Counted from the stretch's first letter, positions 7,254-24,672 are shown. The stretch: 64,000 nt of DNA from Candidatus Dormiibacterota bacterium (GCA_963709585.1 CAVPXI010000018.1:1-64000), one strand, 5' to 3'. Notes: a model not told the origin generated them from the sequence alone. Made by a program: numbers and translations.

Positions 7254-7711
7254 TTAAGCGACGTTCTCCACCGATGGCACGTGCACGATCAGTACCGGCA
7301 CGCGACTGCCGCTCAACACGGCATGGCTCACGCTGCCGAGGAAAAGGAGCCGGCGTCGCCTCGCCCGCGCGAGCCGACGACGATCAGATCATGGTTGCTC
7401 GCCGCCGCCCGGTCGAGCAGCGCCTGGGCCGGCGCCGCGTCGACGACGAGCACTTCGGCGCTCACCTCCGCGGGGATCGCGCCCTTCGCCTCGTCCGCGA
7501 TCGCCTGCGCGTCACTGCGGACGCCCGCGATGAATTCGTCGATGGCGCTTTGCGGCAGGGGGGCGACAGGGCCCCAAGGCATCAGCGTGCTGTAGGCGAC
7601 GAGGACGGTCAGCGACGCCTTCTGTGTACGCGCGATATCCACCGCCTGGGTGAGCGCGACCTGCGCGTGCTGCGATCGATCGACGCCGACGAGAAGGCTT
7701 GTGAACATCAT
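7254..7711 (-). CDS. Universal stress protein (one-base homopolymer loss near 7344)
   Basis: LLVGVDRS...DLIVVGSRGRG; restoring one T gives FLGSVSHAVLSGSRVPVLIV. Confidence 0.88.
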
Positions 7712-7907
7712 CAATCTCCGTTGGTCTGGGTGCGCGGTCCTCCAGATTCTGAGGCATTGGGGGGGAGCGCCCGCCCGGTGGCGGTCGGCTTTCGGACAGG
7801 CACCCGCGTGAGAGCAGATTGTCCGGGAACCGTCCGCGAGCCACCCCTAGAGTTCAGCTTCCGGCCCCGAGCGGGCCAGTCGGACCGAGGGTTGAGGAGC
7901 GTCCGCC

Positions 7908-8187
7908 ATGCTGGTACTTGCCGTCAACGCAACGATTCACTGGCTTACCCTCGTGAGCCAGGTCTCGCCGAACGATCCCCTCTCGCAGCAGGTGCTCGCT
8001 CGAGTTCGCCAACCCACTCCTGACATCGGCGCAATTCCTGATACCCGCCGCCGTCGCGATCAGTGGAATTCACAAAATGATGGAGCACCGGGAAAGTGGC
8101 GGTAGCTTCATGGTCGATATGGTTACGAAGGGCGGTGGAGCGATCCTTGTGTTGCAGCTCGTGAAGTCGATCTCTGGAGTTGGCTGA
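7908..8187 (+). CDS. Probable VirB2/TrbC-like pilin, 92 aa after repairing a frameshift near 8005
   Basis: GAGGAG RBS; repaired protein has a leader, hydrophobic FLIPAAVAISGI, a charged loop and hydrophobic GGGAILVLQLV; first gene ahead of VirB6/VirB4. Confidence 0.6.
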
Positions 8188-8378
8188 TGAGCACTGAGGT
8201 ATATCTGCTTTCCATACCGCTCGCGCGGCATCGAAACATTGTCCCGCGACCTCGTCGCAGCAATGCGCTGTCCCCCGGGTCCGGAGTGCAAGAGCCCGAA
8301 CACCCAAGGCAGGGCGTGACTGACACGCTTGTTGCCCCTCGGCATGCGGGCACGATGCAGCGCATCGATCCCGGCTGA
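8187..8378 (+). CDS. Small hypothetical ORF (63 aa)
   Basis: ATG overlaps the pilin stop (TGATG coupling); no recognisable motif. Confidence 0.3.
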   Translation: MSTEVYLLSIPLARHRNIVPRPRRSNALSPGSGVQEPEHPRQGVTDTLVAPRHAGTMQRIDPG

Positions 8379-8398
8379 TCTCAGCAGGCACGCCGGCC

Positions 8399-9943
8399 AT
8401 GGTCGTCGCAGCCAACTGGTGGAATCCGATCAGCTGGCTACAGAACGTAGCCGGTTTTTTTCACGGGGCATACGACGCTGGAGGCGCAGTGCTGAACGTG
8501 CTGGGCGGTGCGCTCACGATTCTCACGCAATTTTTTCGGTTCTTCTTCGATACCGGTCATTTCATCGCCGATGCCGTCAACTGGATCACCGGCGCGCTCT
8601 TCCCACCGGAACTGCAGACCTGGTTCCTCGGTACCATCGGCCAACCGGGGCAGCAGTGGAATTCCGCGCAGATCTACGAATCCTTGTACCGAGGAATGAT
8701 TCCGGCTGCGTTGATGATTGCCGGCGTTGCAGCCGCGGGTCGCATTATCCGGGCGCTCGTCGACCATCGGACCGGGTCCATGGAGACCATCCTTTCAGTC
8801 CTGCCGAGGTTTCTTCTTGCGGTTGCAGTCATCGGTGTACCGGGTACCCAGGTTAGCATTGGCTACACGGCAATCGTGTGGTCCATTGACGCGTCGATCG
8901 CGGTTTCGGGAGCCATTGTGGCACTCATCCTGCATGCGTCACTTCTCAGCGGATTCCAACCGGGTCAAGGATGGTTCAGCCATATCTTTGAGGTACTCGC
9001 CGCCACGAGCCACGACATGGTCGCGGTCGTCGTTGGCGGGATTCCTCTTCTGATCCTCGTGTTGTACACCGCCTTTCTGATGGTCGTTCGCACCGTGATG
9101 CTTGGTTTCTGTGTCGTCACGGCGCCACTGTGCCTCGCCACCGTCGTATTTGATGCGAACAACAAATTCTTCCATTGGTGGCTCGACCTGCTGGGCAGCG
9201 TCCTTCTGACTCCGCTGGTGCTCGGCATGGCGATCGCGCTGAGCTTGACGCTTGCGTCTCATGTCGTCAGCGCCTTCGCGGTTGGCCCGCTGCTCGCCGT
9301 CGTCATTATATGCGGCGGACTCTGGTTCGCAGGCAAGATGGTGCATCAGCTAACCTGGCGCGGCTTCAGTCACGGCAGCGCGCTCGCCGGGTTCGCCGCG
9401 GGGATCGCCACCATGATGGCGCCGGTGCATCGCTTGTCGTCCGCCGGCTTCATGGCGGAGGCGCTCGGAGCGAACCGCGACGGCGGGAACTCTGCAGTGA
9501 ACTTTATGAAGCGACTCGGGCTCGCGGCTCAGGGCTTGGGTCCCTCCGGGGTGACTCCGGGCGCGCTTGCCGCTGGGAACTTCGGCCCCGTGAGCCATGG
9601 CGTGGACCTCGTGGCCTCGGATGGGCCGCCAAACATAGCCGGAGCGCTCGGAGCGGACGGGCAGGCGGCCGTTGCGGGAGTGGAGAAGATGTTCTCGCAG
9701 CACGCATTCAACGCCTTCGGCGCCGCGCACAGCAAATTGATCGGCGCGTCGACCCGTGATCAGCCGTACGGCTCGCTGTCGTCCGGCGATCGGGCTAAGC
9801 TCGCGTGGAGCCGGGCGTCGCCGCGCAATCAGGCTGCATTTGCCAATGACTTCTTGTCCGAGTGGCTCGGCGCCGGTCCTGACCATGACCGCGAGCCCAA
9901 TCACACCATCGGCATGCCGGCGCTCGAGGCAGGAATCGCGTGA
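8399..9943 (+). CDS. VirB6/TrbL-like polytopic T4SS membrane protein
   Basis: Multiple TMs incl. RTVMLGFCVVTAPLCLA...FHWW, Gly/Ala-rich C-terminal tail; directly upstream of VirB4. Confidence 0.72.
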   Translation: MVVAANWWNPISWLQNVAGFFHGAYDAGGAVLNVLGGALTILTQFFRFFFDTGHFIADAVNWITGALFPPELQTWFLGTIGQPGQQWNSAQIYESLYRGMIPAALMIAGVAAAGRIIRALVDHRTGSMETILSVLPRFLLAVAVIGVPGTQVSIGYTAIVWSIDASIAVSGAIVALILHASLLSGFQPGQGWFSHIFEVLAATSHDMVAVVVGGIPLLILVLYTAFLMVVRTVMLGFCVVTAPLCLATVVFDANNKFFHWWLDLLGSVLLTPLVLGMAIALSLTLASHVVSAFAVGPLLAVVIICGGLWFAGKMVHQLTWRGFSHGSALAGFAAGIATMMAPVHRLSSAGFMAEALGANRDGGNSAVNFMKRLGLAAQGLGPSGVTPGALAAGNFGPVSHGVDLVASDGPPNIAGALGADGQAAVAGVEKMFSQHAFNAFGAAHSKLIGASTRDQPYGSLSSGDRAKLAWSRASPRNQAAFANDFLSEWLGAGPDHDREPNHTIGMPALEAGIA

Positions 9944-12573
9944 GCAGCGTGCGCGTCCCTTTGGCGGTCGACGCCCAGTTGCGTGTGCCATTCGGCCCGA
10001 TCCTGATGCCGCTTCGCGCACTGGTGCTCTTGACAGCGGCCGCACCGATGGCTCTGGCATGCCTGAGCCTCGGCGCGCTGTCTGTCGGTTCTCGCCTCGG
10101 ACTCGCAATCGCGGTGATGATGCTCGGGTTCACGGTCGCGGCGCCCATGCGTGAAGGCATCTGGATCGGGACATGGTGTCTCTATCGCCTGAGTTGTCGT
10201 CTCTTGACCACGGCTGTTCTCGACGGTGAGCGGCGCCGCGCGCGCGTTCAGTCCGCGGGAGGCGCGATGCAGGTGTCGAGAATTCGACGTGAGATCGCCT
10301 GGCGGTCACCGGTGCGAGCGCTCCGCCATTTGACCGGCTTGCCAACGTTGAGCGGTGCGGATGCAGGAGTCGTCCGCTTCAATCCCGGCGGTGCTCGCGG
10401 GATCATCATGCTCGAGGGCCCTGGGGGATCTCCGGCGAGCGAGGAACATGCCCGTTGGTGCTCGACCGTGATGCAGTGGCTCCTGGCTCTGGACTGCCCA
10501 GCGCAGCTGGTCAGTGTCGTCAGCAACTTCGATAGTCACCGTGCTCAAGGCGCCTTCGATGAGCGGGTCAAGGGTTGGCCGGCTACTCGACTCGCGGAGC
10601 TCGAGCGCGATCTGGCCGGCAAGGTGGCCGAGCAGAGCCTCGGACTCCGTCATTTCGTGGTGCTCTCGCCAGGACTCGCAGCCGCCGACGGAATCCCATG
10701 GCTCAGCCGCGCGACGCGCCTGCCGCGAGCTTTTGAGGCCAGCGATGAAGACGCGAGACGAGCTCTCCTCTCAGCGTTGCGGACGGCGCCAGGCCTAGGG
10801 GTGGCAGCAACGACCGCGGACCGTGATGACATCGCCGATCTCCTCGTCGATACCGTTGTCGGTGCGACGAGTGCTGCGGTCAGCGGTGCGGGAGTTGTGC
10901 GGATCGGGGACGAATTCCAGATCGCCCTCACTGTGACTCGCCTCCCTCCCACGGTTCATTCTGGTTCCGTTGTTGACGCCCTCGTCCGCAGCCGCGCAAA
11001 AGGCTACGCGAGCCTTCACGTGCTTCCGGTCGATGCGAAGGTTGCGCGCGCAGTGCTCGATCGCCGCGCGGCGATGCAGCGGTACACCGCCCGCGAAGGG
11101 AACGATGGCATCGACAATCAAGTTGCGCTCGCCGACACGACGGCGGCCCTCGCGGCGATCGCTCAGCGTCAACTCATTCCGTGCCGGATTGCGTTGGGCT
11201 TTGCGGTGCGAGACTCGGTTCTGTCCAAAGCAGCAGAAACGGCAGAACGGCTCGACGGCCTTCTCCGAGGCCAGGGATTTGACATCGTCCAGCCGACGTC
11301 GCCAGGCCTGCTGCCGTCCTTGGCGGTCACACCGGGAGGTTCACCGCTCGGACGCAGTCTTCAGCTGACGTCCGACGCGGTCGCCGCTTGCCTGATCCCA
11401 GCTCTGGGCACGCCGTTCTCGGATCAGCGACAGCCGCTCATAGGCATCAACCAGCTCACCGGAGCGCCGGCATACCTCTCCATCTGGAGTAGGCCAAACC
11501 ACAACGCGGTGGTCGTCGGAAGCTCCGGATCGGGCAAGAGTATGGCTGCGAAAACGCTGCTTGTTCGGCATGTGATGGAGGGTGCCTCTGCTGTGGTCAT
11601 CGATCCTGACTCGGAGTACCGACGGGTCATGAACGCGATCGGAGGACTCCATTTCGAGCTCGGTGAGGACTCGCTAAACCCGCTGGCCCCTGGCTGCGAT
11701 GTGCCGCCCGACGTGGCGGCGAGCCTCCTGCTCCCGGTACTCAGCGTCATGGCTGGTGACGAGAAGGGAGTCAAGGACGGGCGGCCGATTCGGCGGTTGC
11801 CCGACGAGGATCAAGGGTGGATCCATGGCGAGATCGCCTCCTTCTTTCGCGAGTGGGGTCGAGAGCGACCCGGTGCCGAACCGGTCATTCACGACCTCGT
11901 TGCGTTCATCGAGTCAACCTCCGCGGTGCAAGCGCTGACGCGGCGTGAAAAGGAGCGGTGCAGGATCATCACGGCGCGCCTGCGACGGTTCACTCAAGGT
12001 GATCGAGCCCAGATTTTCGATCGGCCATCCACATTTCGCGTCGGCGCCCGACCGGTCTCAATCGGTCTTCGGAACTTCGCGTTGACCTACGCGGCCGATC
12101 TGACGCCTGCTCTCGCGGTCGTGTTGACTGCTGTTCTTGCCGCTCTTGGCCGAGATCATGGACGACTGATCGTTGTCGTCGACGAAGCCCACCGCGTCAC
12201 CATCGATCCGGACGCGGGCGAGGTGCTCGGTCAGCTCGTCCGGCAGGCTCGCAAGCACGGTGCGGGCGTCTGGATGTGTTCGCAGCAGGTTCGCGACTTC
12301 GTAGGCACCGAACTGGGCAGAACGCTCGTTGCAACCGCGGCAACAAAAGTGATCCTCGGGGTCGAAGAGGCCGCGCTCGCCGACGTTCGCGACGTCTTTG
12401 GCCTGGGCGACGATGAGATTGCGGCAATCAACCCACCGGTTCAAGGACGTGCCGTGCTGCTGTCCGGTGGAGAGCGAACCGTTGTGGCGATCGTGCCTGG
12501 ACCGGCTTTGCTTGCGCTTGCGCAATCGTCGCCCGAACCGAGGTCTCTGCCAGTCGCCGCGTTCGCGGGCTGA
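9940..12573 (+). CDS. virB4: VirB4-like ATPase with N-terminal PrgI/VirB3-like membrane segment
   Basis: Walker A GSSGSGKS, VIDPDSEY, Walker B VVVDEAH, RQARKHG, SQQ; N-terminal VPLAVD...FG plus two TMs. Confidence 0.88.
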   Translation: MSSVRVPLAVDAQLRVPFGPILMPLRALVLLTAAAPMALACLSLGALSVGSRLGLAIAVMMLGFTVAAPMREGIWIGTWCLYRLSCRLLTTAVLDGERRRARVQSAGGAMQVSRIRREIAWRSPVRALRHLTGLPTLSGADAGVVRFNPGGARGIIMLEGPGGSPASEEHARWCSTVMQWLLALDCPAQLVSVVSNFDSHRAQGAFDERVKGWPATRLAELERDLAGKVAEQSLGLRHFVVLSPGLAAADGIPWLSRATRLPRAFEASDEDARRALLSALRTAPGLGVAATTADRDDIADLLVDTVVGATSAAVSGAGVVRIGDEFQIALTVTRLPPTVHSGSVVDALVRSRAKGYASLHVLPVDAKVARAVLDRRAAMQRYTAREGNDGIDNQVALADTTAALAAIAQRQLIPCRIALGFAVRDSVLSKAAETAERLDGLLRGQGFDIVQPTSPGLLPSLAVTPGGSPLGRSLQLTSDAVAACLIPALGTPFSDQRQPLIGINQLTGAPAYLSIWSRPNHNAVVVGSSGSGKSMAAKTLLVRHVMEGASAVVIDPDSEYRRVMNAIGGLHFELGEDSLNPLAPGCDVPPDVAASLLLPVLSVMAGDEKGVKDGRPIRRLPDEDQGWIHGEIASFFREWGRERPGAEPVIHDLVAFIESTSAVQALTRREKERCRIITARLRRFTQGDRAQIFDRPSTFRVGARPVSIGLRNFALTYAADLTPALAVVLTAVLAALGRDHGRLIVVVDEAHRVTIDPDAGEVLGQLVRQARKHGAGVWMCSQQVRDFVGTELGRTLVATAATKVILGVEEAALADVRDVFGLGDDEIAAINPPVQGRAVLLSGGERTVVAIVPGPALLALAQSSPEPRSLPVAAFAG

Positions 12574-12576
12574 AGG

Positions 12577-13326
12577 GTGGCGCTCCCCGCCGCAATCGGC
12601 GCTGCACTTTCGAGGGTTCGTTCCGCAGCGGCGCTGACTTCGGCTGTCGGCGGTGGGTCCTCGCGGCGCACAGGACGGCGTTTCGGGGCGTACTGCCTCG
12701 TGCCCTGCATCGGTTGCGGTGCATGTTCCGTGGTCGCAGGTATCGTCGCTCTGTCCGTCGGGAGCGGGCTTGTCGCCGCCACGGCGTCGCTGATTGGTGT
12801 CGGAAGTGGCCCGCCCTGCCAGGCAGAGACGGTGAGTTCCTGCGCCGCGCTGAGCGGGTTTGTCGTCGGTGCCCCGATGAACTGCCCGAACATGTACGTC
12901 AGCCAGGGATTCGGGGACACCCCGTGGGAGCACCCACATAGCGGTATCGACATCGTGTGCCCGCCCGCAACCATGGTGGTCGCGGTCGCGGATGGAGTTT
13001 TTCATCAAGCGCTGGGGCCGCCCATCGCCTGCCGGTACCCGCCGGGGCGGACCGGCGGCCTCGGCACGTACGGCGTCCTCGATGCCGGCGGCAGGACATA
13101 CCTCTACGGTCACCTCGAGGCGTTCGCCGCGCCCGACGGAGCGCATGTGATCATCGGGCAGCCAATCGGCTTCGAGGGGGCCACCGGATGCGCAACCGGC
13201 GATCACCTTCACTTCGAAGTTCTCGAGCGCGGCCGGCCGGTCGACCCATGCCCGGCCCTGCCAGCCGGATACCCCGATCCGCATGATCGGAGCGGGTTGC
13301 GGTGCTGGGGCTCCGCCCCGCCGTGA
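12577..13326 (+). CDS. Membrane-anchored M23 metallopeptidase (cell-wall hydrolase)
   Basis: HSGID, YGHL and HLHFEV zinc motifs; one TM. Confidence 0.88.
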   Translation: MALPAAIGAALSRVRSAAALTSAVGGGSSRRTGRRFGAYCLVPCIGCGACSVVAGIVALSVGSGLVAATASLIGVGSGPPCQAETVSSCAALSGFVVGAPMNCPNMYVSQGFGDTPWEHPHSGIDIVCPPATMVVAVADGVFHQALGPPIACRYPPGRTGGLGTYGVLDAGGRTYLYGHLEAFAAPDGAHVIIGQPIGFEGATGCATGDHLHFEVLERGRPVDPCPALPAGYPDPHDRSGLRCWGSAPP

Positions 13327-13410
13327 TCGTGCAATCACCCACCCACCCCCGAGTGTCCTATGCTCATCCCTGCCTGGCGGCGGGGCGATTCTCAGGGAGG
13401 GGTGCATCGC

Positions 13411-14046
13411 ATGAGTTGTAGAAGGCTGGCTGCTGCCATGTTCTTCAGCGCGGTTATTGTCGTCGTACTCGGGCTGATCGTATACACAGAGCAGACGAAC
13501 GCGACTCAGACCACGGCGGTGTGGATCGTTACGCATGATGTCGCCGCGGGAGCAGCCTTCGCCGCCGACGATGTCCAGCTCGTTCAGGTTCGTGCGGGAT
13601 CTGGTGACTTCAACTACGAGGTGGCCGGCCCAGCGACGTTTCATGCGCTCTTCGCACGAAACCTCCTAGTCAACGACATCTTGAGAAGCGACGATCTTGT
13701 CCCAGTGACGGCCGAGTCAGAAGTTGCGATCACCCTCGAAGCCGCCCCGCCCCTGACCGCGGGCGAGAACATCGACGTGTTCGCAGCTCTCTCGGGTAAC
13801 GAGCAGGTTCTCATCGGGCATGACCTGATCGTCAACACCGTATCCGGGGGATCCGTAACGGTGCTTGTTCCAGTGGCCGACGAAGCATCGTGGATCACGG
13901 TCGGGGCGTCAAACGTTGCGTTACATGCGGCACTCACCGTGCCTGGCGCACAGGTGGCGGCATCACCGCTCAGCGCCGATGCCGCGATACATATCCTCTG
14001 TGGGAGTGCGTGCGGGGGGCTCTCGGGAAGCGCGACAACACCGTGA
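13411..14046 (+). CDS. SAF-domain CpaB/RcpC-like pilus assembly protein
   Basis: GGGAGG RBS, one TM, VWIVTHDVAAGAAFAADDV SAF pattern, GENIDV. Confidence 0.72.
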   Translation: MSCRRLAAAMFFSAVIVVVLGLIVYTEQTNATQTTAVWIVTHDVAAGAAFAADDVQLVQVRAGSGDFNYEVAGPATFHALFARNLLVNDILRSDDLVPVTAESEVAITLEAAPPLTAGENIDVFAALSGNEQVLIGHDLIVNTVSGGSVTVLVPVADEASWITVGASNVALHAALTVPGAQVAASPLSADAAIHILCGSACGGLSGSATTP

Positions 14047-14750
14047 CGTTGCTCCTGGGTGTCTGTACCACCCGTTCCGGGCAGACCTCCACATCGTGGG
14101 CAACCAGCTTGGCCTGGTCGCTCGCGGCACGCCGCTCCGTGATGCTCATCGATTGCGATATGGAGGGTGGCACCATCGCGGATCTGCTCTATCTCCGACT
14201 GGATGACCGAGGCCTTGCCAACTGTTTCGGCGATCGAGCGGTGACGGCGACCGTGCTGGCTGCCCAGTCAATCCCCGTGCCAGACCGGCCGGGATTGCGA
14301 GTGATCCCGGGGCTGCGCAGCACCTATGGCCTGGAGATCGGCGATTGTCTTCGTTCGATTGCGCCGGCACTCGACGCTCTTGCCTGTGACACCGTCGTCG
14401 TTGATCTCGGGCATCCATGGGCGCACCCAAGCCTCCGCTCCCCGCGGGCCGCTGCAGACGCGGTCTGTGCAGTCTTCGATCGCGTCTTCATCGTGATTCG
14501 CGACGATCCGGCGTTGCTGTCGAGAAGCATCCACGTCCTCCGCACCGCGCGCCCTCCGCATGGCGAATTGGTGGTGTGTGAGCAGCGAGGAGCTACCCAC
14601 CGGCGGGTCATGGTCGAGAGCCTTGAACGCGAACTCCCCGATCTCCCAATCCGGCGAGGGTGGGTCTGGGACGAGCGACGCGCCGCTCGGGTCGCCGACA
14701 CGGGTCGTCCGACGATCCTCTCCGGCGTCGAAGCGGAGTTGCATCTGTGA
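14043..14750 (+). CDS. TadZ/CpaE-like MinD-family protein with degenerate P-loop
   Basis: TRSGQTSTSWATSLA, VMLIDCDMEGG, VVVDLG; lies between CpaB and TadA; GTGA coupling. Confidence 0.68.
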   Translation: MTLLLGVCTTRSGQTSTSWATSLAWSLAARRSVMLIDCDMEGGTIADLLYLRLDDRGLANCFGDRAVTATVLAAQSIPVPDRPGLRVIPGLRSTYGLEIGDCLRSIAPALDALACDTVVVDLGHPWAHPSLRSPRAAADAVCAVFDRVFIVIRDDPALLSRSIHVLRTARPPHGELVVCEQRGATHRRVMVESLERELPDLPIRRGWVWDERRAARVADTGRPTILSGVEAELHL

Positions 14751-16147
14751 CCTCCATTGCCGTTGGCGTGCCTGCCATATCCGGCGGTCACCGCTCCCCC
14801 GTACAGGTCAGCCGGTGGCCTCACATTCCGACTGAGGAGCGCGAGGTAGCGGAGATCATTGCCGCTTCGGTGCAACGATCGAGAAAGGGGGAACCGGCTT
14901 CGGTCCTGCACGAAGAGCGCTTGGGTGAGGACGTTGCTAGAGCCATTGACCAGGCTATCGAGTTGCCGCAGACCAGCGGGCTGCCGCTCTCGGTGGTCGC
15001 TGAGCTTGCTCGCAATCCGCGTTACCGGGCGACGACCCAACGAAACGCGATCATTCTTGGATCGCATCTCTATCCGCTGTCGCTACTGATCTACGGAGCG
15101 GAGCTCGAGAACATCACCTGTCTCGGCCACGACCACTGGCTGGTGAGCACGGTAGGCCGGAAGCTCTCACTCATGGGGGACAGCCCATTCTCGAGCGACG
15201 AAGACGTCCTCGAGTTCTTTCGGGGCGTCGTGCGCATGCGTGGGGTGACCGGTGATCAGTCGATCACGGACGCGTCGCCGATCGCAGAGGCGAACGTCGG
15301 CAGTGTGATTCGACTCTGCGTCGCGAAACGACCCGCGGTATCCGGGCGTTCCGATGTAAAAGCGGCCATCAGAGTGCCTGCACGCTCGAAGGTCCGCGAT
15401 CTCGGCGACTACGTGTCGCAGATGATCATCCCACCCGGGGTTGCAGCATTCGTGGAAGCGTGCGTGCGCGGTCGCGCCAATTTGATGATCGCCGGGGGTA
15501 CGTCCACCGGAAAGACGACTCTGGTGCGTGTTCTCGCGGGGATGGTCCCCGAGGATGAGCACATCGTGGTGGTTGAGGACGGAGCCGAACTACACCTCGA
15601 CCAGGACCGCGGCGATGGACGGCAGTGGCACGCGCTCACTACCGCTGTGTCGACCATCCCGTCGATTCGAGCAGACGCCGACGCACAGCATCTCACTATG
15701 TTCGATCTCGTACGGCACGCGCTCCGGTTTCAACCCGACCGGCTCATCCTCGGTGAATCCCGAGGTGAGGAGATGGCCGCGGTGTGCAAAGCACTGATGA
15801 CAGGCCACGACGGCTCGATGACGACGATCCATGCCGAGGATGCCGAGCTCGCCATCGAACAAGCAATGCAGTACGTTATGGAGAACGCCCGTTTCGCGGG
15901 AAACGAGAGACTGGCGCGGCGGATCGTGGAACAGGCGGTCCACGTGGTGGTGCACATAGCCAACCAGGACGGACGTCGACGCATCACCGGTGTCGTTGCA
16001 GTCGAGCGCGGGGGGAATCACAAGTGGGTATACCGCCAAGGGGATAGCGGAGGCCTCGTTCGGGGAACGGACCTTATCGGCAACCTGGGTCGCCTTGCAC
16101 CCCGAATCCGCGCCTTCCTCCCCAGCGACGAGGTCCCCGAGCCATGA
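14747..16147 (+). CDS. cpaF: TadA/CpaF (VirB11-family) secretion ATPase
   Basis: GGTSTGKTT, EDGAEL, LRFQPDRLILGESRG, GHDGSMTTIHA. Confidence 0.92.
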   Translation: MTSIAVGVPAISGGHRSPVQVSRWPHIPTEEREVAEIIAASVQRSRKGEPASVLHEERLGEDVARAIDQAIELPQTSGLPLSVVAELARNPRYRATTQRNAIILGSHLYPLSLLIYGAELENITCLGHDHWLVSTVGRKLSLMGDSPFSSDEDVLEFFRGVVRMRGVTGDQSITDASPIAEANVGSVIRLCVAKRPAVSGRSDVKAAIRVPARSKVRDLGDYVSQMIIPPGVAAFVEACVRGRANLMIAGGTSTGKTTLVRVLAGMVPEDEHIVVVEDGAELHLDQDRGDGRQWHALTTAVSTIPSIRADADAQHLTMFDLVRHALRFQPDRLILGESRGEEMAAVCKALMTGHDGSMTTIHAEDAELAIEQAMQYVMENARFAGNERLARRIVEQAVHVVVHIANQDGRRRITGVVAVERGGNHKWVYRQGDSGGLVRGTDLIGNLGRLAPRIRAFLPSDEVPEP

Positions 16148-17064
16148 CGCTCGGCAGCCAGCTTCCCGAGCCGGTGATCCTCGTTGCCGGGGTCGCGGCG
16201 ATCGTCGCGTGCGGGGGTGCCGGGATCGCCGCCATTCTCGGGGTTCAGCCACTGGCGAGGAGCTCGCGACACCGCACCATTCCTTTGCTCGAACACGAAA
16301 AGGACGTGGCCGCAGCGCTGGGATGGCCTTGGCGCCGCTGGGTCGCGCTGCGTGCCGGCGTGACGATGGCGGGGGTTGTCGTCGGATTCACAACGCAGAT
16401 CTGGTTCCTGAGCTTCCTCCTTGGCGCCATCGGGTTCTTCGGTGTCCGATTCCTCGTGGCTGGTCGTGCTGCGCGGAGGCGGCTGAGCATGGAGCGCGCC
16501 TTTCTCGTCCAGCTTCGAGCCCTACGCGATCGTATGGCGGTCGGCAATCAGTCACTGGACTCCGCCCTCCAGGAGATCGGGCGCAATCCCGGTCGTGAGC
16601 TGACCTACGTGCTGGAACCCTGGGCGCGGGGCGGTTCGGTCACGGGGAACATCGTCCGGAGCGGTCTACGCTCCCGTTCGCCTCTCGTGGAGCATGCCTG
16701 CGCTGTCCTGATCTGGGCGAGAACGCGCAGCCTCGACGGCCTCATATCCGCGATCGATGATGTGCTGCTCCCTGTTGGCGAGGCGCAACTTCAGGTCGAA
16801 GAGGAGTTGCTGGTCACCCTGACCCAGCAGCGAGCGGTCACGTTCGCCATGTCGGCGCTCATGACAGTCATGTTCGTGAGTCTCGTGCGCGTGGCCAGCT
16901 TCCGGGCGTACTACGCCACGTTCGCAGGCACCGTTGTCCTCCTCGTCGCCATCGCGATGTTCTTCGGCTTGATCGCAATGCTTGGGCGCATCGCCCGAAC
17001 CGCGCGCTGGACCCGCTGGGATCTCCATCAGGTCCAGGACCAGGAGTTGCATCCCCATGGCTGA
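16144..17064 (+). CDS. TadB-like T2SSF platform protein
   Basis: TMs, LRDRMAVGNQSLDSAL T2SSF-like segment; follows TadA with ATGA overlap. Confidence 0.75.
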   Translation: MTLGSQLPEPVILVAGVAAIVACGGAGIAAILGVQPLARSSRHRTIPLLEHEKDVAAALGWPWRRWVALRAGVTMAGVVVGFTTQIWFLSFLLGAIGFFGVRFLVAGRAARRRLSMERAFLVQLRALRDRMAVGNQSLDSALQEIGRNPGRELTYVLEPWARGGSVTGNIVRSGLRSRSPLVEHACAVLIWARTRSLDGLISAIDDVLLPVGEAQLQVEEELLVTLTQQRAVTFAMSALMTVMFVSLVRVASFRAYYATFAGTVVLLVAIAMFFGLIAMLGRIARTARWTRWDLHQVQDQELHPHG

Positions 17065-17953
17065 CGCCGTACCCTACGCCGCCGTTGCGATGCTCGCCAT
17101 TGGAGCATGGATCGGTGGGGTCGCCGTCCTGGATGTGTTCACGGCCGCTGACGCACGCGCCTGGCGACGCATGACCCAACTCCGGGGCTTCGCAACCCGC
17201 GGGTCGGCATTCGAAAGAGTTGCGCGTCGAGCTCCGATGCTGCAGCGTTTGCAGGCTGAACTCGACCTCGAGCGTCTCCTCGGTCAGGCGAACAGCGTCG
17301 ATACGCCAGCGAGCTTCCTCGCTCGAACCGGTGCGATCTCGTTGACGACCTTTGCGCTTCTGCTCGGTGTCACGGCTGGTGCCAGGGCATTGGAGGGCGA
17401 TTGGCCAGTTGCGCCGTGGGCGGCTGTGCTGATCGCGGTTCTGATTCTCCCGCTTGCGCTCGTCGATCTTCGTCGGCGCGCAAGTGGAGCACGCGAGTCG
17501 TCGGCCCGAACTCTCGGGGACATGCTCATGGCGGTCGCTGTCATGACCGACAGTCGTGGGCTGCAACTCGATGACGCGGTGAAGGTCATGTCACGCTGCG
17601 CGCGGGATGCTGCTCTGCAAAATCTCCTGGATCGAGGTGGGTTCAAGAGGCTGGTGGAGAGCTCATATCGCTCGACGGCGGAGAAGTATCGGCTCATCGG
17701 TGACGCGTATCGGATTCAAGAATTCCTCGACGTTGCCGACGCCGCGGCGACCACCAATGTTGGAGTCCCGGATCGAGTTGCCTATACACGCCTCGCTCTG
17801 ACGGTTTATCACGAGCGTCTCGCGGACGCCCGTGTGCGGGCAGCGCGGGCGAGAATTCTGATCACACTGCCTATAGCCGGCATGCTCATCCCGTTGCTGC
17901 TCTTGATCGGGGCTCCAACATTCCACGCAATATCCGCGGGGTTGGGAGGCTAG
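17057..17953 (+). CDS. TadC-like T2SSF platform protein
   Basis: C-terminal RAARARILITLPIAGMLIPLLLLIGAP typical of TadC. Confidence 0.75.
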   Translation: MADAVPYAAVAMLAIGAWIGGVAVLDVFTAADARAWRRMTQLRGFATRGSAFERVARRAPMLQRLQAELDLERLLGQANSVDTPASFLARTGAISLTTFALLLGVTAGARALEGDWPVAPWAAVLIAVLILPLALVDLRRRASGARESSARTLGDMLMAVAVMTDSRGLQLDDAVKVMSRCARDAALQNLLDRGGFKRLVESSYRSTAEKYRLIGDAYRIQEFLDVADAAATTNVGVPDRVAYTRLALTVYHERLADARVRAARARILITLPIAGMLIPLLLLIGAPTFHAISAGLGG

Positions 17954-17961
17954 CGGACATC

Positions 17962-18342
17962 GTGCGCAGAGCCACCCCTGCCCTCGGCCTTATCGTGGCG
18001 ATGCTCGCCTCGGCGTGGTTTGTGCTGCGCGCGCCCGATGTCGCCCAGGCATACGTCTTCTTCACAGCAGGAATACCCAGCCTCGCCGCGGGGGAAGCGG
18101 TGATGACGTTGCTTGCGTGGCTGGTTGTCATAGTCGCCGCGAGCGCGACGTTCATGGGCGTCTTCCGAGGGAGCTGGGCGTCGCGGGTTCGCGCACATTC
18201 CACCTCGTATGCGTCCCTGTTTCTCGTCGTCGGGCTGCTGCTTCTCGCGGTTGGTGCAGTTCAGCGAGCGCTGCCCGCGGCATCGATGTGCTGCGGGTCG
18301 GGTCCGGCGAATATTCGCGAGGCGATACAACTTGCGCACTGA
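17962..18342 (+). CDS. Small 3-TM hypothetical protein
   Basis: Hydrophobic segments, C-terminal MCCGSG; lies within the operon. Confidence 0.6.
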   Translation: MRRATPALGLIVAMLASAWFVLRAPDVAQAYVFFTAGIPSLAAGEAVMTLLAWLVVIVAASATFMGVFRGSWASRVRAHSTSYASLFLVVGLLLLAVGAVQRALPAASMCCGSGPANIREAIQLAH

Positions 18343-19825
18343 TCAGACGGCTTCGCGCGCGATTGTCGTGCTTCTTGAAGATGACGAGAGTGCCGACGCA
18401 GTTGCGCGGACGCTTGATGATCTGTCGTCGGATGGCGGCCGCGTGATCACCTTGCTGCCACCCACGCGTGGCATCGGATTCTTTTCGGACGGCCCCGAGC
18501 AACGGCAACTCGACGCGTGGTGGGACGCGCAGATTCCGCGCGACGCGCATGTCAGCTTCGTTCTCGACGACCGGGAAGGGTTGGCGGAGTGGCTGATCGG
18601 AATCGATGGGTCATGTTATGTCGGGGTTACCTCGACGCCGCGGCTTGCCGCCTACGACCACCGACCTGGTGTGCGCGTTCTCATGGCTCGATCTCCACTG
18701 GACTACGTCGCCGCCGTCATGAGTGACCTTGTACACGAGGGAACCTACGATGAGGTCGAAGCAAGCCGGATGCGCTCGCTGGCTGCAGCCTTCACCCAGG
18801 AATCCGTCTCGATCTCTGCGGACGCATCTGGCGACGGAGAGACCGAACCGGGCCCGGATCCGTTCGACCTGCTCATCGCAATGAGCCTTGACCAGGCAGA
18901 CGCGGCGGCAGCAACCATGAGACACGTACCTGCACCGAGGAATGAGCCACAGGCGTCAGCGAATCGTGGATTTCGTCTACCAGGTTGGGCGCGCCGAGCG
19001 GGGCCCCGGCGAACGCCGAACGACATATCGAACACGAACTTGGCCAATCTGCTCGTCATGCGGGGGTCGACCATCGTTGCCGTCGGATCTCGCAAAGGCG
19101 GCGTGGGCAAGACAAGTCACGCGGCAGGCGTTGCCATCGTGGCGGGAACCGCGCTGGATGCCGTCGGCCGCTGCGCTGCCATCGTGGACGCGAACGTGGC
19201 CAATCCCGATGCGTGGGGACAACTCAATCTCCCGCCCGGCGCTGCGACGGTGCGCGACATGGTCGTCGCGCTGGCCGCTGACCGGGAGCTTCCCAGACCT
19301 GTGCACGCGTCGACCCCGGCTTTGGCCTGCTATCCGGAGGCACGCGAGACCTCCGAGTACTCGCGAACCGAGATCGGATTGATGGCCGCTCATCTCCGCT
19401 CGCGCTATCCGCTGGTAATCGTCGATATGAGCAACCGGCTGCCGGATCCTACGGCTGGTCCCGCCGCTGCCGCAGCCGCCTACTGGCTGGAGCACGCCGA
19501 CGTTCTGGTGCTCCCGAGCGCCGCGTCGAAACAGGACTTCAACGGCGTGCTCGACTACCTCGACGTGCGTGACCTGCCGCCCGTAATTGTCGCGTCGCTG
19601 GTTGCGCGGACGCGGCGCAATCGCGAGCACCCGTTGGCCAAACGCTACATGACCGCGATTGCGCATCGGGTCTACCGAGTTGTGGACATTCCAGATGATG
19701 CGGAACGGGTCCGGTATGCAGGGATGCAGGGAGTCCCGGTCGAGGTCGTGTCAGCTCCTCTTCGAGCGGCGTATCGAGAACTGGCTGAGGCGATAGTGCC
19801 CGCTCCGCAGGCGGTCGCACCTTGA
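18332..19825 (+). CDS. MinD/ParA-family ATPase with extended N-terminal domain
   Basis: Deviant Walker A GSRKGGVGKTS, IVDAN, VIVDMS; TTG start inferred. Confidence 0.8.
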   Translation: MRTDQTASRAIVVLLEDDESADAVARTLDDLSSDGGRVITLLPPTRGIGFFSDGPEQRQLDAWWDAQIPRDAHVSFVLDDREGLAEWLIGIDGSCYVGVTSTPRLAAYDHRPGVRVLMARSPLDYVAAVMSDLVHEGTYDEVEASRMRSLAAAFTQESVSISADASGDGETEPGPDPFDLLIAMSLDQADAAAATMRHVPAPRNEPQASANRGFRLPGWARRAGPRRTPNDISNTNLANLLVMRGSTIVAVGSRKGGVGKTSHAAGVAIVAGTALDAVGRCAAIVDANVANPDAWGQLNLPPGAATVRDMVVALAADRELPRPVHASTPALACYPEARETSEYSRTEIGLMAAHLRSRYPLVIVDMSNRLPDPTAGPAAAAAAYWLEHADVLVLPSAASKQDFNGVLDYLDVRDLPPVIVASLVARTRRNREHPLAKRYMTAIAHRVYRVVDIPDDAERVRYAGMQGVPVEVVSAPLRAAYRELAEAIVPAPQAVAP

Positions 19826-20283
19826 GCCGGTGGATCGGCGCGGTGATGCGCCGCGGCACGTCGCCGGATCGATTGAGCGAACACGCGGTTCGGGAACAGC
19901 GGCTCGACCACATCCGCGATGCCGTCGAGCGATTCACGTATACGCTGGGGTTGCTGATCGCCGGTCACGACCCCGAGGATTCGGCTGACGACGGTCTGAC
20001 TGGCCAGCTCCAGCGCGAGCTCCGACCCTTCCTCGACGCTGGCGATGCGATGCGTCCAGACTTCGGAGCCTTCGGAGACTTACGAATCGAAGGCGAGTTG
20101 CTTCAGGTGTCGATGCCGGTACTGGCGACGCTGGAATTCGATGATCGCTGTGCTCGGGAGACGGTGCAAGGGCGAATGATCCCCGGCCGCGGACGGCGCT
20201 TGCGGGTCACCATGCACGTTGCCGTCGAACCGGTTCACATCATCGACTGCGCAATCTCCGAGGTTCCAGATCGACGTGGTTGA
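19822..20283 (+). CDS. Hypothetical soluble alpha/beta protein
   Basis: Coupled to neighbours (TTGA overlap); helical N-half, beta-strand-like C-half. Confidence 0.6.
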   Translation: MSRWIGAVMRRGTSPDRLSEHAVREQRLDHIRDAVERFTYTLGLLIAGHDPEDSADDGLTGQLQRELRPFLDAGDAMRPDFGAFGDLRIEGELLQVSMPVLATLEFDDRCARETVQGRMIPGRGRRLRVTMHVAVEPVHIIDCAISEVPDRRG

Positions 20284-20875
20284 TCGGACGATCGACCCCG
20301 CCGCGGGCACCACCTCTTTCCCAGAGCGATCCAACCAGACGCTGCCTGTTCCCCTCGGCGGGTTGGCTCCGGTGCACCGACACTCGACAGCGATGAGGCG
20401 CACCTTGCGCCGGCACCGCTCCGTGCCGCTGATGGCACTCGCATTCGCGGCTTCCGGCTCCGGCGTGTTGCTCTCAACCAGTCCGCGTTCCTTCGACGCC
20501 GGCGGAGATGCTGCCGGGGTGCACATCGACGACATGACGCTTGCGCCCGCTGCGCAGCCGGAGTCCGGGACCACGATCTTCACGGGCGCCGCGACACTGG
20601 TGATCGTCGCCCCCTCGCCGCGCACCGAAAGAGCTGGTGCGGTGACGACCTGGAACGGCGTCCCTACGACGGGGCGCTGCGTGCTCACTGACGGGGTTGC
20701 GGTAACCAGCGAGATGTGCGAGTACGAGATGGGTACAGCGCGATTGACCTCCACAGACAGCTATACCGCCGCGACGAGAACCTGGCATCGACGCTATAGC
20801 GACGGCGTCGAGATCACCATAGCGGTCCCCACCGGCAGCGAAGTGATCCCTATCCCGTTCCCGCTGGGGCGCTGA
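20276..20875 (+). CDS. Bitopic/secreted hypothetical protein
   Basis: Basic stretch plus hydrophobic segment, Thr-rich beta domain with two Cys; start uncertain. Confidence 0.6.
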   Translation: MVDRTIDPAAGTTSFPERSNQTLPVPLGGLAPVHRHSTAMRRTLRRHRSVPLMALAFAASGSGVLLSTSPRSFDAGGDAAGVHIDDMTLAPAAQPESGTTIFTGAATLVIVAPSPRTERAGAVTTWNGVPTTGRCVLTDGVAVTSEMCEYEMGTARLTSTDSYTAATRTWHRRYSDGVEITIAVPTGSEVIPIPFPLGR

Positions 20876-20951
20876 TCGAGCGGGGCATCGCGCAATTTGA
20901 GGTCATTGTCCCAATACCGTCCGGCGTGAGGATGCATCCTGCAAGTGACTG

Positions 20952-22721
20952 ATGGCTGCAGCTCCCTGGGATCGATATCAACCGTGGCGGGATATCGGTA
21001 CCAGCGGTGCGCTCATCGTGCTCTGGATCGTCCCATGGCTCGTCCTCACGGCGGCCACCTGGATCGCGGGCGGTCATCCGAGCGTGTCACCTGTCGCGTT
21101 TATCAATCCAGGCGACATGATTCGTCGCATCTGGTCAGTGAACGGGCCGTTTCAGTGGTGGGTGCTTGTGGCACCGACGTCCACCGTTGTCGCTTGGCGA
21201 TTTTGGGCCAGTCTTGCTCTTATGATCGCTGCTGCCGGAGTTGGCACTGCCGGCGTCAGAATCCAGATTGCCCAAATACGACGCGGCAGGTTCAGACAGT
21301 TCCTCCCTGCTGACCGCGGGGTCGTTCGTGTGGCGCACTGGGCTCGGGCTGTGGACCTCCGGTCGCTGCGTGGGCGCCCCGGTCACGACGGCGTATTTCT
21401 GCTTGGCAAATTCGGACGCCGGCTGCTGGTGAGTCAGCCGGAAACGAGCGTTCTAGTGATCGGACCCACCAGGTCAGGGAAGACCGCCGGGTTGGTCATT
21501 CCGAATCTCCTCGACTGGGATGGCCCCGCCATTGCGACCAGCACCAAGAGCGAACTGGTGGATCTCACTGCAGGCCGTCGGCAGTCGCTAGGCCCCGTAC
21601 ACGTCTATGACCCGACAGGGGAGATCGGGGACGGCTTCCGCACGGTCACGTGGTCTCCAATCGCTGGTTGCGAAGACCTCGATCGTGCCTGGATGGTGGC
21701 ATCGTGGCTGTGTGCCTCGTTACAGCAGGGAGGGGGGCGCGGCGACAACGATTGGTCGCACTGGGCTGAATCAGGGAAATTGCTGATCGCGCCGCTCCTC
21801 TACGCCGCCGCGATCACGGGTCGCACCATCATCGACGTGCGGACCTGGATTCACGGATTCGACATCGCGACACCGATCAGCCTCCTGGAAGAAATGCTGC
21901 TTGATCCTACGGCTCTGGCGGATGCCGACCCCATTCGCGCCATGTCGATGCTCGCCTCAGTTGATCAGCGACCGGAGCGTGAGCGCGGGACGGTCTTCTC
22001 GACGGTGATGCGCATCTTCAATGTCTTCACTGAACGAGCGGTCGCGGAATCAGCACTGTCGAGCCGCTTCGATGCCGATGACTTCCTCCGTGGCCGCGGC
22101 ACCCTCTACCTCTGCACGCCGAGGCAGACACCGGAGCGAGTTGCGAGCCTCTTCGTCGGCATCCTCATGACGGTGGTAACGTCCGCATACGCGCGATCGG
22201 AGCGGAACGCGGAGTGGCCGAAAACGGGCAGCCTTGGCCTGTTTCTTGACGAGCTGGCAAATGTTGTGCCCATCGAAGACCTCCCGGCGCTCGCCTCCCA
22301 GGGCGCCGGGCGCGGCGTGATGTTGATGTCAATTGTTCAGGATTTGAGTCAGCTCCGGGCGCGCTATGGCGTGGACAGGGCCAACACCATCTTGAACAAT
22401 CATGGCTGCAAGGTCATTCTTCCAGGAATCAGTGATCCCGAGACTGCGGATGTGCTCGGCAAGCTAGTCGGCCGTACAGCCTATACCGAGCAGCAGTTGA
22501 GTGTCGGCGCGGATGGACGGGTGAGCCGTTCGTATTCGATTCGACACGATGCGATGGCGACTCCTGACGCGTTGCGACAGCTGGCGGCCGGTAGCGCTAT
22601 CGTGATCCACAGAGACAGTCCGCCTGCGTTCGTGAGCCTGCCGTACTGGTTCCGGAGTGCGCGTTATCGAAAGCTCGTCAAAGTTCCGTATTTCCGGGCT
22701 GCCGAGCACGTCCCGCGCTGA
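20952..22721 (+). CDS. virD4: VirD4/TraG type IV coupling protein
   Basis: N-terminal TMs, GPTRSGKT, TSTK, FLDELAN, QDLSQLRARYG. Confidence 0.92.
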   Translation: MAAAPWDRYQPWRDIGTSGALIVLWIVPWLVLTAATWIAGGHPSVSPVAFINPGDMIRRIWSVNGPFQWWVLVAPTSTVVAWRFWASLALMIAAAGVGTAGVRIQIAQIRRGRFRQFLPADRGVVRVAHWARAVDLRSLRGRPGHDGVFLLGKFGRRLLVSQPETSVLVIGPTRSGKTAGLVIPNLLDWDGPAIATSTKSELVDLTAGRRQSLGPVHVYDPTGEIGDGFRTVTWSPIAGCEDLDRAWMVASWLCASLQQGGGRGDNDWSHWAESGKLLIAPLLYAAAITGRTIIDVRTWIHGFDIATPISLLEEMLLDPTALADADPIRAMSMLASVDQRPERERGTVFSTVMRIFNVFTERAVAESALSSRFDADDFLRGRGTLYLCTPRQTPERVASLFVGILMTVVTSAYARSERNAEWPKTGSLGLFLDELANVVPIEDLPALASQGAGRGVMLMSIVQDLSQLRARYGVDRANTILNNHGCKVILPGISDPETADVLGKLVGRTAYTEQQLSVGADGRVSRSYSIRHDAMATPDALRQLAAGSAIVIHRDSPPAFVSLPYWFRSARYRKLVKVPYFRAAEHVPR

Positions 22722-22756
22722 CCATCATTGACTTGCCGAAGTAGACCGACAGTCGC

Positions 22757-23776: not shown

Positions 23777-23877
23777 GATCCAGTATGCGGCTCCTGAGGC
23801 CGCATCCGCCCGGTCCGACGCGGACGGATGGCGGACGTCCCTCCAACGCGCGGAAGCAAACTGCTAGGGTCCCAGCC

Positions 23878-24657: not shown

Positions 24658-24672
24658 CTCGAGGCGTGCAAG

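Follow-up and report, generated by a model that had tools for sequence, protein, structure and literature searches.

In canonical Tad/Flp pilus loci, such as Cpa of Caulobacter and Tad of Aggregatibacter, the genes lie in the order CpaB, TadZ/CpaE, TadA/CpaF, TadB and TadC. In the Sulfolobales, the Ced DNA importer, a membrane system with VirB2-, VirB6- and VirB4-like parts, works together with Ups type IV pili. We analyzed a 64,000-nucleotide stretch of DNA (hereafter the window) from a Candidatus Dormiibacterota bacterium (GCA_963709585.1, CAVPXI010000018.1:1-64000), in which a row of genes at positions 7908-22721 joins components of a type IV secretion system (T4SS) to those of a Tad-type pilus motor. 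Comparison with related genomes indicates that this locus is a vertically inherited, chromosomal composite operon of a clade of monoderm Dormibacteria, and that it is functional. We further propose, giving the idea about an even chance, that its T4SS and Tad modules cooperate as a contact-dependent transfer apparatus, a physical integration that we infer from the arrangement and conservation of the genes. Like the locus, Ced/Ups combines a VirB-like membrane system with type IV pilus logic; it is archaeal, however, its parts are separately encoded, and the CedB and CedD profiles scored far below their cut-offs against the locus proteins (E 0.0088 and 4.9e-4).

A literature search for T4SS-Tad hybrids, in Dormibacteria or elsewhere, returned the Cutibacterium acnes plasmid case only. 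On the linear plasmids of this species T4SS-like genes stand directly upstream of a tad locus, and in the accessible part of their report the authors ask whether pili and transfer apparatus are linked and leave the functional link open (PMC5696575). Like our locus, that of C. acnes, also a monoderm, has a VirB4-family ATPase and other transfer-type genes immediately before a Tad locus. By the same text, the C. acnes genes are plasmid-borne, encode a TcpC-like protein besides an FtsK/TraB-like translocase, and bring their own pilins, of which TadE2 was found by mass spectrometry (PMC5696575). The Dormibacteria locus, in contrast, is chromosomal, has no pilin genes, encodes a VirD4-type coupling protein and includes no recognised TcpC-like protein.

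The sole plasmid match for the VirB4 of the locus was on a linear plasmid of Embleya sp. (NZ_CP108778.1). As annotated, its T4SS genes comprise a PrgI-family protein, a VirB4-like ATPase, a type IV coupling protein, a 'replication-relaxation' protein and an NlpC/P60 hydrolase, and about 7 kb downstream, in the same orientation, follow a SAF-domain protein, a hypothetical protein, a T2SS/T4P/T4SS ATPase, two T2SSF proteins and three TadE/TadG proteins. A Streptomyces canus linear plasmid (NZ_CP108710.1) is annotated with the same layout, its T4SS side holding a C40 hydrolase, ATP/GTP-binding proteins and a 'replication-relaxation' protein. On both plasmids, much as in our locus, co-oriented T4SS genes lead into a gene of SAF/CpaB-like type, a hypothetical gene, one for a CpaF/VirB11-type ATPase and two T2SSF or T2SSF-like genes; these systems differ in being plasmid-borne, in encoding a relaxase-like protein in cis as well as TadE/TadG, and in placing several unrelated genes between the two blocks. 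An Arthrobacter conjugative plasmid has a full tad locus apart from its transfer genes, and the NCBI name of TIGR03819, 'TadA family conjugal transfer-associated ATPase', also ties a TadA clade to conjugal transfer. The first-pass annotation of the window had called the machine undescribed, which is too strong given the T4SS genes that lie beside tad on the C. acnes, Embleya and S. canus plasmids; the pairing is unusual, not unprecedented.

A tree was computed from 18 ATPase sequences, 13 of them hybrid or stand-alone forms from Dormibacteria; two plasmid sequences in it form long branches, and its root serves for drawing only. The Dormibacteria clade stands apart from the genome's canonical Tad ATPases and three plasmid ATPases (support 100/100), and inside that clade a stand-alone copy from the same family branches as sister to the hybrid forms (98/97). 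Because the plasmid ATPases fall outside the Dormibacteria clade, the tree points to an association that arose within this lineage, independently of the actinobacterial plasmids.

Two chromosomal systems are also instructive. Dormibacteria have been grouped with Chloroflexi and the Candidate Phyla Radiation in a monoderm clade (preprint 10.1101/2021.05.31.446380, seen in part). The Patescibacteria, a related lineage, have a chromosomal monoderm-type T4SS core (VirB4, VirB6, a VirB3-like protein and wall hydrolases including M23), without VirB3-VirB4 fusions; these systems, which resemble mating-pair formation type FATA, are mostly relaxase-less, with the coupling protein often encoded elsewhere, and the word 'Tad' is absent from the accessible text (PMC12102498). 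The Streptomyces cmdABCDEF genes, which we liken to our locus by their description in the accessible part of PMC2782261, form a chromosomal operon of a membrane VirB4-like ATPase and further membrane proteins with a non-conjugative role; that description includes neither Tad-type genes nor VirD4.

Gene content, conservation and selection

The window comes from contig C18 of a 24-contig, 3.5-Mb genome (completeness 88.8%) whose nearest public relatives are metagenome-assembled genomes of Candidatus Dormibacterota/Dormibacteria. Fifteen open reading frames (ORFs; g01-g15), all on the plus strand, make up the row, which is real; start and stop codons overlap by 4 nt at g03/g04 (GTGA, 9940-9943), g08/g09 (ATGA, 16144-16147) and g12/g13 (TTGA, 19822-19825).

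Three T4SS-type products were named correctly at the outset and have clear profile matches. The VirB4-family ATPase (g04, 9940-12573) matches TraC-F-type at 2e-29, VirB4_CagE at 8.6e-25 and P-loop_TraG at 2.5e-11; since all its NCBIfam scores fall below the equivalog cut-offs, it is by these profiles a divergent member of the family. It was first described as a PrgI-VirB4 protein, of which the VirB4 part holds, while residues 1-137 gave no PrgI match at E up to 0.1; a hydrophobic stretch at residues 16-71 forms a predicted N-terminal membrane hairpin. The membrane-anchored M23 peptidoglycan endopeptidase (g05, 12577-13326; PF01551, 1.5e-16) is, by this profile, the wall hydrolase of the T4SS, and a longer SLT+M23 form occupies its position in some relatives. 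The VirD4-type coupling protein (g15, 20952-22721; PF02534, 8.1e-48; TraG-D_C, 1.5e-23) is the sole PF02534 match in the genome. For g03 (8399-9943), a polytopic membrane protein with several hydrophobic segments, the VirB6/TrbL label depends on a match to PF04610 that stays below threshold (E 1.3e-4; 22.2 bits, cut-off 25.9), and its topology fits a VirB6/TrbL-like channel protein.

The Tad-derived block comprises g06-g12 and g14. Its first gene, g06 (13360-14046), encodes a CpaB/RcpC-like protein with one transmembrane segment and a SAF-like domain; direct matches are weak (CpaB N-terminus 1.3e-3, SAF 0.018), and three orthologues match SAF at 7e-7 (above cut-off), 0.0043 and 0.0046. The TadZ-like ParA/MinD-type product of g07 has a weak P-loop match, and one orthologue matches CbiA at 1.3e-6 (above cut-off) and AAA_31 at 2.9e-6; the longest ORF is 13890-14750, tblastn matches begin at residue 25-52, and the real start probably lies near 14040. 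The T2SSE-superfamily ATPase g08 (14660-16147; PF00437, 4.5e-27) is of the TadA/CpaF-VirB11 kind. It had been called TadA, and by score it is not separable from VirB11/TrbB, its NCBIfam matches being near-ties that all fall below cut-off (VirB11 1.5e-38, TIGR03819 4.6e-38, TrbB 2.6e-35); its neighbours and its clustering in the tree with stand-alone Tad-type ATPases of Dormibacteria place it with the Tad-type modules.

The candidate platform proteins g09 (16144-17064) and g10 (17057-17953) are assigned to the TadB/TadC-like (T2SSF) class by indirect matches. Among orthologues from distant Dormibacteria, four of six for g10 match T2SSF (5.1e-8, which is above cut-off, 1.6e-4, 9.3e-4 and 1.8e-3), as does one of six for g09 (0.037, over the full domain). 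T2SSF is also recorded for 29 of the 30 nearest named ESM Atlas clusters of g09 and 27 of the 30 of g10 (scores 0.95-0.96), and the aligned stretches of both proteins in hhalign comparisons fall at the start of the T2SSF domain. When PDB sequences were searched with profiles of g09 and g10, nothing matched at E up to 10; the AlphaFold2 model of g10 is poor (predicted local distance difference test, pLDDT, 51, from 15 alignment rows), and none of the 136 homologues in the g10 family is named or has a recorded Pfam domain. The remaining members are g11 (17962-18342), a small protein with three hydrophobic, putatively transmembrane segments that also occurs in stand-alone modules; g12 (18209-19825, the real start probably being later than 18209), a large ParA/MinD-like protein with an N-terminal extension and putatively a second TadZ/CpaE-like component (MinD/ParA 5e-4 to 5e-3, a Walker-A-like motif near residue 295, an orthologue matching CbiA at 2.9e-4); and g14 (20219-20875), the last gene of the block, which has an N-terminal hydrophobic segment, also occurs in stand-alone modules and, orthologues included, matched no family in profile searches.

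Thus the labels CpaB, TadZ, TadB and TadC, which the first-pass annotation had given, draw little from direct profile tests, and it is the orthologues and ESM Atlas neighbours that speak for them. Because the orthologue Pfam matches, these neighbours and the TadE-like genes upstream of stand-alone blocks (PF07811, 1.1e-9 to 5e-5; just before the CpaB-like gene in three loci) agree, we accept g06-g10 as a divergent Tad-type core, by homology. The block shares the canonical gene order; it differs in having no Flp pilin, TadE/F or TadV gene, in the additional g11, g12 and g14, and in platform proteins too divergent for PF00482. On C18, six-frame searches found neither Flp pilin (PF04964) nor TadE (PF07811) at E up to 0.1, nor a prepilin peptidase (PF01478/Peptidase_A24), of which the genome has a single match, on C23. 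Elsewhere in the genome there are five Flp matches (C15, C14, C13, C16 and C5) and five TadE matches (C12 and C1), and C16 holds a canonical TadB/TadC pair together with its Flp gene; a six-frame PF00482 search located four other places in the genome, none of them on C18.

At the front of the operon, the first-pass annotation had reported a VirB2-like pilin of 65 amino acids (7908-8105). This ORF is a frameshift artefact, and relatives and independent contigs give 92 amino acids for g01 (7908-8187). An extra base near 8005 is missing from 21 of the 22 relatives aligned over 7700-8420, an alignment whose codon-periodic conservation begins at the start codon (ATG, 7908) and ends at the stop codon (TGA, 8185-8187); it is also absent, at all their depth, from the contigs of runs X1 and X2, which represent near-identical strains, and in the contig of run X12 it is left out one base further on. 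(Run X3 does not cover the site; X12 is labelled RNA-Seq and judged probably DNA, and no listed run is recorded as RNA.) Since both relatives and independent contigs have no such base, g01 is almost certainly intact in nature. The hydrophobic leader of the predicted product varies, but its mature part (residues 23-92) shows little or no change across 20 species, among them the most distant hybrid, whose VirB4 is just 54% identical. In T4SS-only loci the gene immediately before VirB4 is a g01 homologue (65% identity over 54 residues), and stand-alone Tad-type loci yielded no such homologue; therefore we assign g01 to the T4SS module.

The g01 family is small: a search of 1.84 billion proteins yielded 46 cluster representatives with E values up to 1e-3. 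For the 92-residue product (P0002), a Pfam search reaching E 10 gave no match, 30 representatives of the family likewise matched no VirB2/TrbC or PrgI profile, and with its AlphaFold2 model (pLDDT 62) Foldseek found nothing in the PDB at E up to 0.001, the best rows being ATP-synthase c-ring hairpins at E above 5. 'VirB2-like', or VirB3-like, is thus a resemblance of size, two helices, variable leader and position only. Seven cluster representatives (P0125-P0131) match only as far as residue 62 or 76 from residue 1 and then diverge; the breaks fall near a G-run where the g01 alignment has an indel column and may be assembly indels or real variant C-termini. The small ORF that follows, g02 (8187-8378), is a doubtful gene with no family match; it was matched in 14 VirB4-centred loci (41-90% identity) and is missing from nine of the 23 complete ones.

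The order and strand of g03-g14 are kept in 23 of 29 VirB4-centred loci; three others are atypical or cut by contig ends (L010, L019, L035) and three hold T4SS genes only (L020, L031, L032). In loci centred on VirD4, the chromosomal genes to either side (d1-d8 and u1-u6) are the same. Because relatives share these flanking genes on both sides, the locus is, by synteny, at a fixed chromosomal site and not a roaming element. An integrative and conjugative element or conjugative plasmid was considered and rejected on the grounds of constant flanks, of no relaxase, integrase or replication genes in cis, and of no near-identical plasmid DNA; a profile scan of the window, flanks included, found neither relaxase nor integrase. 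Nor does the locus match a known plasmid or integrative element gene for gene, an outcome that the first-pass annotation had named as one that would refute its reading: PLSDB holds no near-identical DNA, and the nearest plasmid-borne VirB4 has 28.8% identity, across 42% of the protein. The low G+C content of L020 and L031 was considered as a sign of mobile elements and dismissed, the other contig fetched from each genome being equally low.

Ratios of nonsynonymous to synonymous substitution (dN/dS), computed against two to nine relatives per gene and rough owing to saturated dS, were 0.04-0.18 for g03, g04 and g06-g10 (0.07-0.18 for g03 alone), with two comparisons to the most distant genome at 0.25-0.38. 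They were 0.12-0.31 for g05, 0.14-0.25 for g12 and g13, 0.23-0.55 for g11, 0.2-0.47 for g14 and 0.4-0.6 for g02. By this measure the operon is conserved under purifying selection. These values speak against the view that the locus is what is left of an ancient integrated conjugative element, decaying and without present function, an explanation that we consider very improbable. In its favor are deletions with different breakpoints that have removed most of the operon and part of VirD4 in at least five relatives (L051, L058, L060, L061 and L063), the frameshift of g01 in this assembly, and a G+C content at third codon positions (GC3) of about 0.70 in the operon against about 0.85 in much of the window. 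Yet the ORFs are intact in 23 loci, the core-gene dN/dS stays low across species, the frameshift is absent from the independent contigs of near-identical strains, and the low GC3 covers 3.9-29 kb, ordinary flank genes included. We note that four of the five deletions start just after g01, and that the other end lies at VirD4 residue ~345, ~466, ~469 or ~486 or within g12.

Separability of the modules and the position of VirD4

The T4SS-type and Tad-type genes occur both together and apart. With a g10 profile, 19 of the 401 genomes in a sample of the phylum-level group proved to contain the family: 12 of 17 in the own family of the source genome, three of 12 and two of five in two sister families, none of four and none of eight in two others, and one weak instance elsewhere (these tallies include the unpublished genomes G173 and G272). 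A linkage survey covered 34 class-level genomes. In G400 and G296 a VirB4 of at least 53% identity adjoins g10 on one contig; in G004, G092 and G146 it lies on another contig, near the contig end, so that adjacency is possible, although in G092 no overlap was found between the end of C3, with the T4SS genes, and the start of C18, with the Tad-derived block. G092 (on its C18) and G280 have g06-g14, g13 included, with a co-oriented VirD4, and the contig of G280 opens with an SLT+M23 hydrolase. In G232, G320, G155 and G312, g06-g12 and g14 stand beside the flank gene d1 without g01-g05, g13 or VirD4, and no TadE gene was found upstream of the block. Homologous g06-g12 blocks, some with g14, occur at 27-46% identity in other Dormibacteria families, and G004 holds a second copy.

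Unlinked T4SS and Tad genes in most relatives had been named in advance as evidence against a single machine, and the outcome is divided: the modules are linked in 23 of 29 VirB4 loci and apart in many relatives. Because hybrid, block-only and T4SS-only forms all occur among the relatives, the Tad-derived block looks like the resident part, to which T4SS genes were added at three points (g01-g05, g13 and VirD4).

The most telling of these insertions is g13 (19822-20283), a gene for a putatively soluble protein that occurs only where T4SS genes or VirD4 are present. It was found in all 23 complete hybrid loci, and in L088 and L091 together with VirD4, whereas no match was obtained in ten loci where the Tad-derived block stands without T4SS genes. 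That a gene inside the Tad-derived block tracks the T4SS genes is, in our view, the best argument for modules that would be integrated and not merely adjacent.

The place of VirD4 is less constant. The first-pass annotation had put the Tad block between VirB4 and VirD4. This is correct for the window, where the contigs of X2, X3 and X12 bridge both VirD4 junctions in the same orientation and no strand-changing joints are listed, but it does not extend to most relatives: where g14 and VirD4 are both visible, VirD4 is co-oriented in six of 23 loci only (L045, L046, L050, L062, L030 and L034). Even against the closest relative, L039, the orientation differs while VirB4 is 96% identical. By blastn the inverted segment (20918-22732) is exactly the VirD4 gene, 85% identical between colinear flanks of 92% and 95%; a search for inverted repeats flanking it found none that convinces, and no recombinase was seen. 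In three loci VirD4, d1 and d2 are inverted as a whole block (co-oriented in L045, convergent in L054 and L057). Across species (L036-L063), VirD4 or VirD4-d1-d2 shows four orientation arrangements, as if this spot had inverted repeatedly.

A cooperating transfer apparatus and the alternatives to it

We base the proposed cooperation of the two modules on five points: they share one operon, the operon has no pilin genes in cis, g13 is embedded, g01 is invariant, and a convergent precedent exists in another monoderm phylum. The starting point would be a lineage-specific Tad-type motor operon with no pilin, pseudopilin or prepilin-peptidase genes of its own, which would have received a minimal set of monoderm-type T4SS genes: g01-g05 upstream, g13 inside and VirD4 downstream. 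In the resulting apparatus the M23 enzyme would open the wall, VirB4, VirB6 and g01 would form a membrane translocon, and VirD4, where present, would recruit substrates. The Tad-derived ATPase and platform would build or retract a filament, or a conduit that spans the wall, from Flp pilins encoded elsewhere or possibly from g01 itself. One candidate substrate would be the DNA of integrated mobilisable elements on other contigs of the genome, once nicked by the TrwC-type relaxases of these elements. On C8 (L077:11876-17762) a full TrwC relaxase-helicase of 980 amino acids has a DpnII-type restriction enzyme and a tyrosine recombinase as neighbours, and on C4 (L078:7197-11755) a degraded TrwC copy lies beside another recombinase; from their gene content, both are probably integrated mobilisable elements that have no T4SS of their own and would need one in trans.

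Several observations weigh against such an apparatus. Profile searches recognised no VirB8/TcpC/PrgL-like component among the 15 products. As for the platform proteins, g09 has no direct PF00482 match and g10 has one at E 3.9 only, while hhalign gave probabilities of about 0.1-1.5% for g09 against g10 and for each against the genome's own TadB/TadC. Of the 23 relatives in which the orientation of VirD4 could be scored, 17 have it convergent, and the gene was not found in G155, G232, G312 or G320 (90-93% complete), four of ten family genomes with the Tad-derived block, which also have no T4SS core. The block likewise occurs without VirB6, VirB4, M23 and VirD4 in G041, G053, G208 and G074 as well as in those four, G119 has T4SS genes without any g10 match, and the deletions described above affect the operon in at least five relatives. 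Finally, TrwC is present in four of the ten family genomes with the block and in five of the five without it, two of these as fragments only.

Some of these facts would be expected of two separate machines under one promoter, a minimal T4SS and an ordinary Tad pilus that draws Flp and peptidase from elsewhere. The coupling would then be regulatory only: the pilus would serve attachment or mating-pair formation and the T4SS would carry out transfer. That both modules persist alone in relatives, that five Flp-type matches and one Peptidase_A24 match lie in trans, that actinobacterial plasmids pair T4SS genes with complete tad loci and their own pilins, and that the authors of the C. acnes study, in its accessible part, left the functional link open (PMC5696575) are all in keeping with it. 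Nevertheless, we consider this arrangement somewhat unlikely. The block lacks pilin, pseudopilin and peptidase genes, whereas TadE genes stand before its free-standing homologues in other families; g13 lies inside the Tad-derived block yet occurs only with T4SS genes or VirD4; and the separate canonical TadB/TadC genes with Flp on C16 could serve ordinary Tad pili. The earlier claim that the T4SS and Tad genes form the locus of one machine is borne out as to the conserved chromosomal operon, its purifying selection and its constant flanks, and weakened by the separability of the modules.

The irregular distribution of VirD4 and TrwC bears on a further alternative, in which the locus would be an exapted, relaxase-independent system for DNA uptake or exchange, or with an envelope role, comparable to the T4SS-derived ComB and Ced importers or the relaxase-less chromosomal T4SS of Patescibacteria; in that case VirD4 would be dispensable. 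There is no relaxase in cis, TrwC was not found in six of the ten family genomes with the Tad-derived block, the chromosomal site is fixed, and VirD4 is variably oriented, truncated in some relatives and not found in others. Other lineages offer parallels, each taken from a partly seen source: the sister lineage Patescibacteria keeps a chromosomal, mostly relaxase-less T4SS (PMC12102498), transformation of Micrococcus luteus requires Tad genes (cited in PMC5696575), and the Streptomyces chromosomal VirB4-like cluster has its non-conjugative role (PMC2782261). Against this, VirD4 is intact and conserved in most hybrid loci (72-89% identity) and the genome holds a full relaxase-helicase. The genome has no PF03432 relaxase; the relaxase searches covered the MOBF and MOBP/Q profiles, and other relaxase families may have been missed. 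Taken together, exaptation appears unlikely to us.

A more radical form of the cooperation proposed here is that the pilus-class motor has been re-tooled to polymerise g01, or to energise a conduit made of it, giving a chimeric filament or channel machine. We regard this as distinctly improbable. If it were true, such a machine would give monoderm Dormibacteria a plasmid-free means of exchanging or importing chromosomal DNA, and the actinobacterial parallel would suggest a general need of monoderm T4SSs for a pilus motor.

How substrates of monoderm T4SSs pass a thick wall, and how partners are found, is poorly understood. With its single operon, pilin-less motor, embedded T4SS-associated gene and near-invariant small subunit, the Dormibacteria locus displays a tighter coupling than the actinobacterial plasmids, and it does so on the chromosome of an abundant, uncultured soil lineage. 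Should the modules indeed be one machine, they would represent a new architecture of contact-dependent transfer and a possible route of gene exchange in Dormibacteria; the natural hybrid, motor-only and T4SS-only variants constitute a ready-made comparative experiment.

Flanking genes and further observations

On one side the operon is flanked by genes for a major facilitator superfamily transporter, a two-component system, a lactonase-like protein and a Usp protein. On the other lie d1, a short-chain dehydrogenase/reductase (SDR) gene, a CAAX protease gene, holB, a family 1 glycoside hydrolase gene, a helix-turn-helix regulator gene and thiC. The conserved flank gene d1 (22757-23776, minus strand) accompanies VirD4 and the Tad-derived block, adjoining VirD4 in relatives and g14 in loci without VirD4; its product of 339 amino acids matched no family in a profile search. 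It evolves fast, with 42-69% identity where its neighbours show 80-90%.

No match was returned by an Rfam scan of the whole window, and a scan of 7600-23000 for promoters and terminators gave no more than shuffled controls. The region of low GC3 (about 0.70-0.78) spans approximately positions 3900-29000, some 25 kb, and is wider than the operon. Two flanking genes are broken in the window: a response regulator at 5124-5898 (minus strand) is split into overlapping receiver and Trans_reg_C ORFs, and the SDR gene at 23785-24904 (plus strand) has an early stop followed by an overlapping ORF without a family. Both splits, like that in g01, may be single-base indel errors of the assembly.

Elsewhere in the genome, at about 353000-356600 of C7 (L065:8123-11614), a protein of 434 amino acids joins an N-terminus that weakly matches PrgI to a ParA/MinD domain. 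It is followed by a VirB4/HerA-like ATPase of 695 amino acids, beside a class II ribonucleotide reductase, and weak matches to this type of ATPase recur in many genomes of the class.

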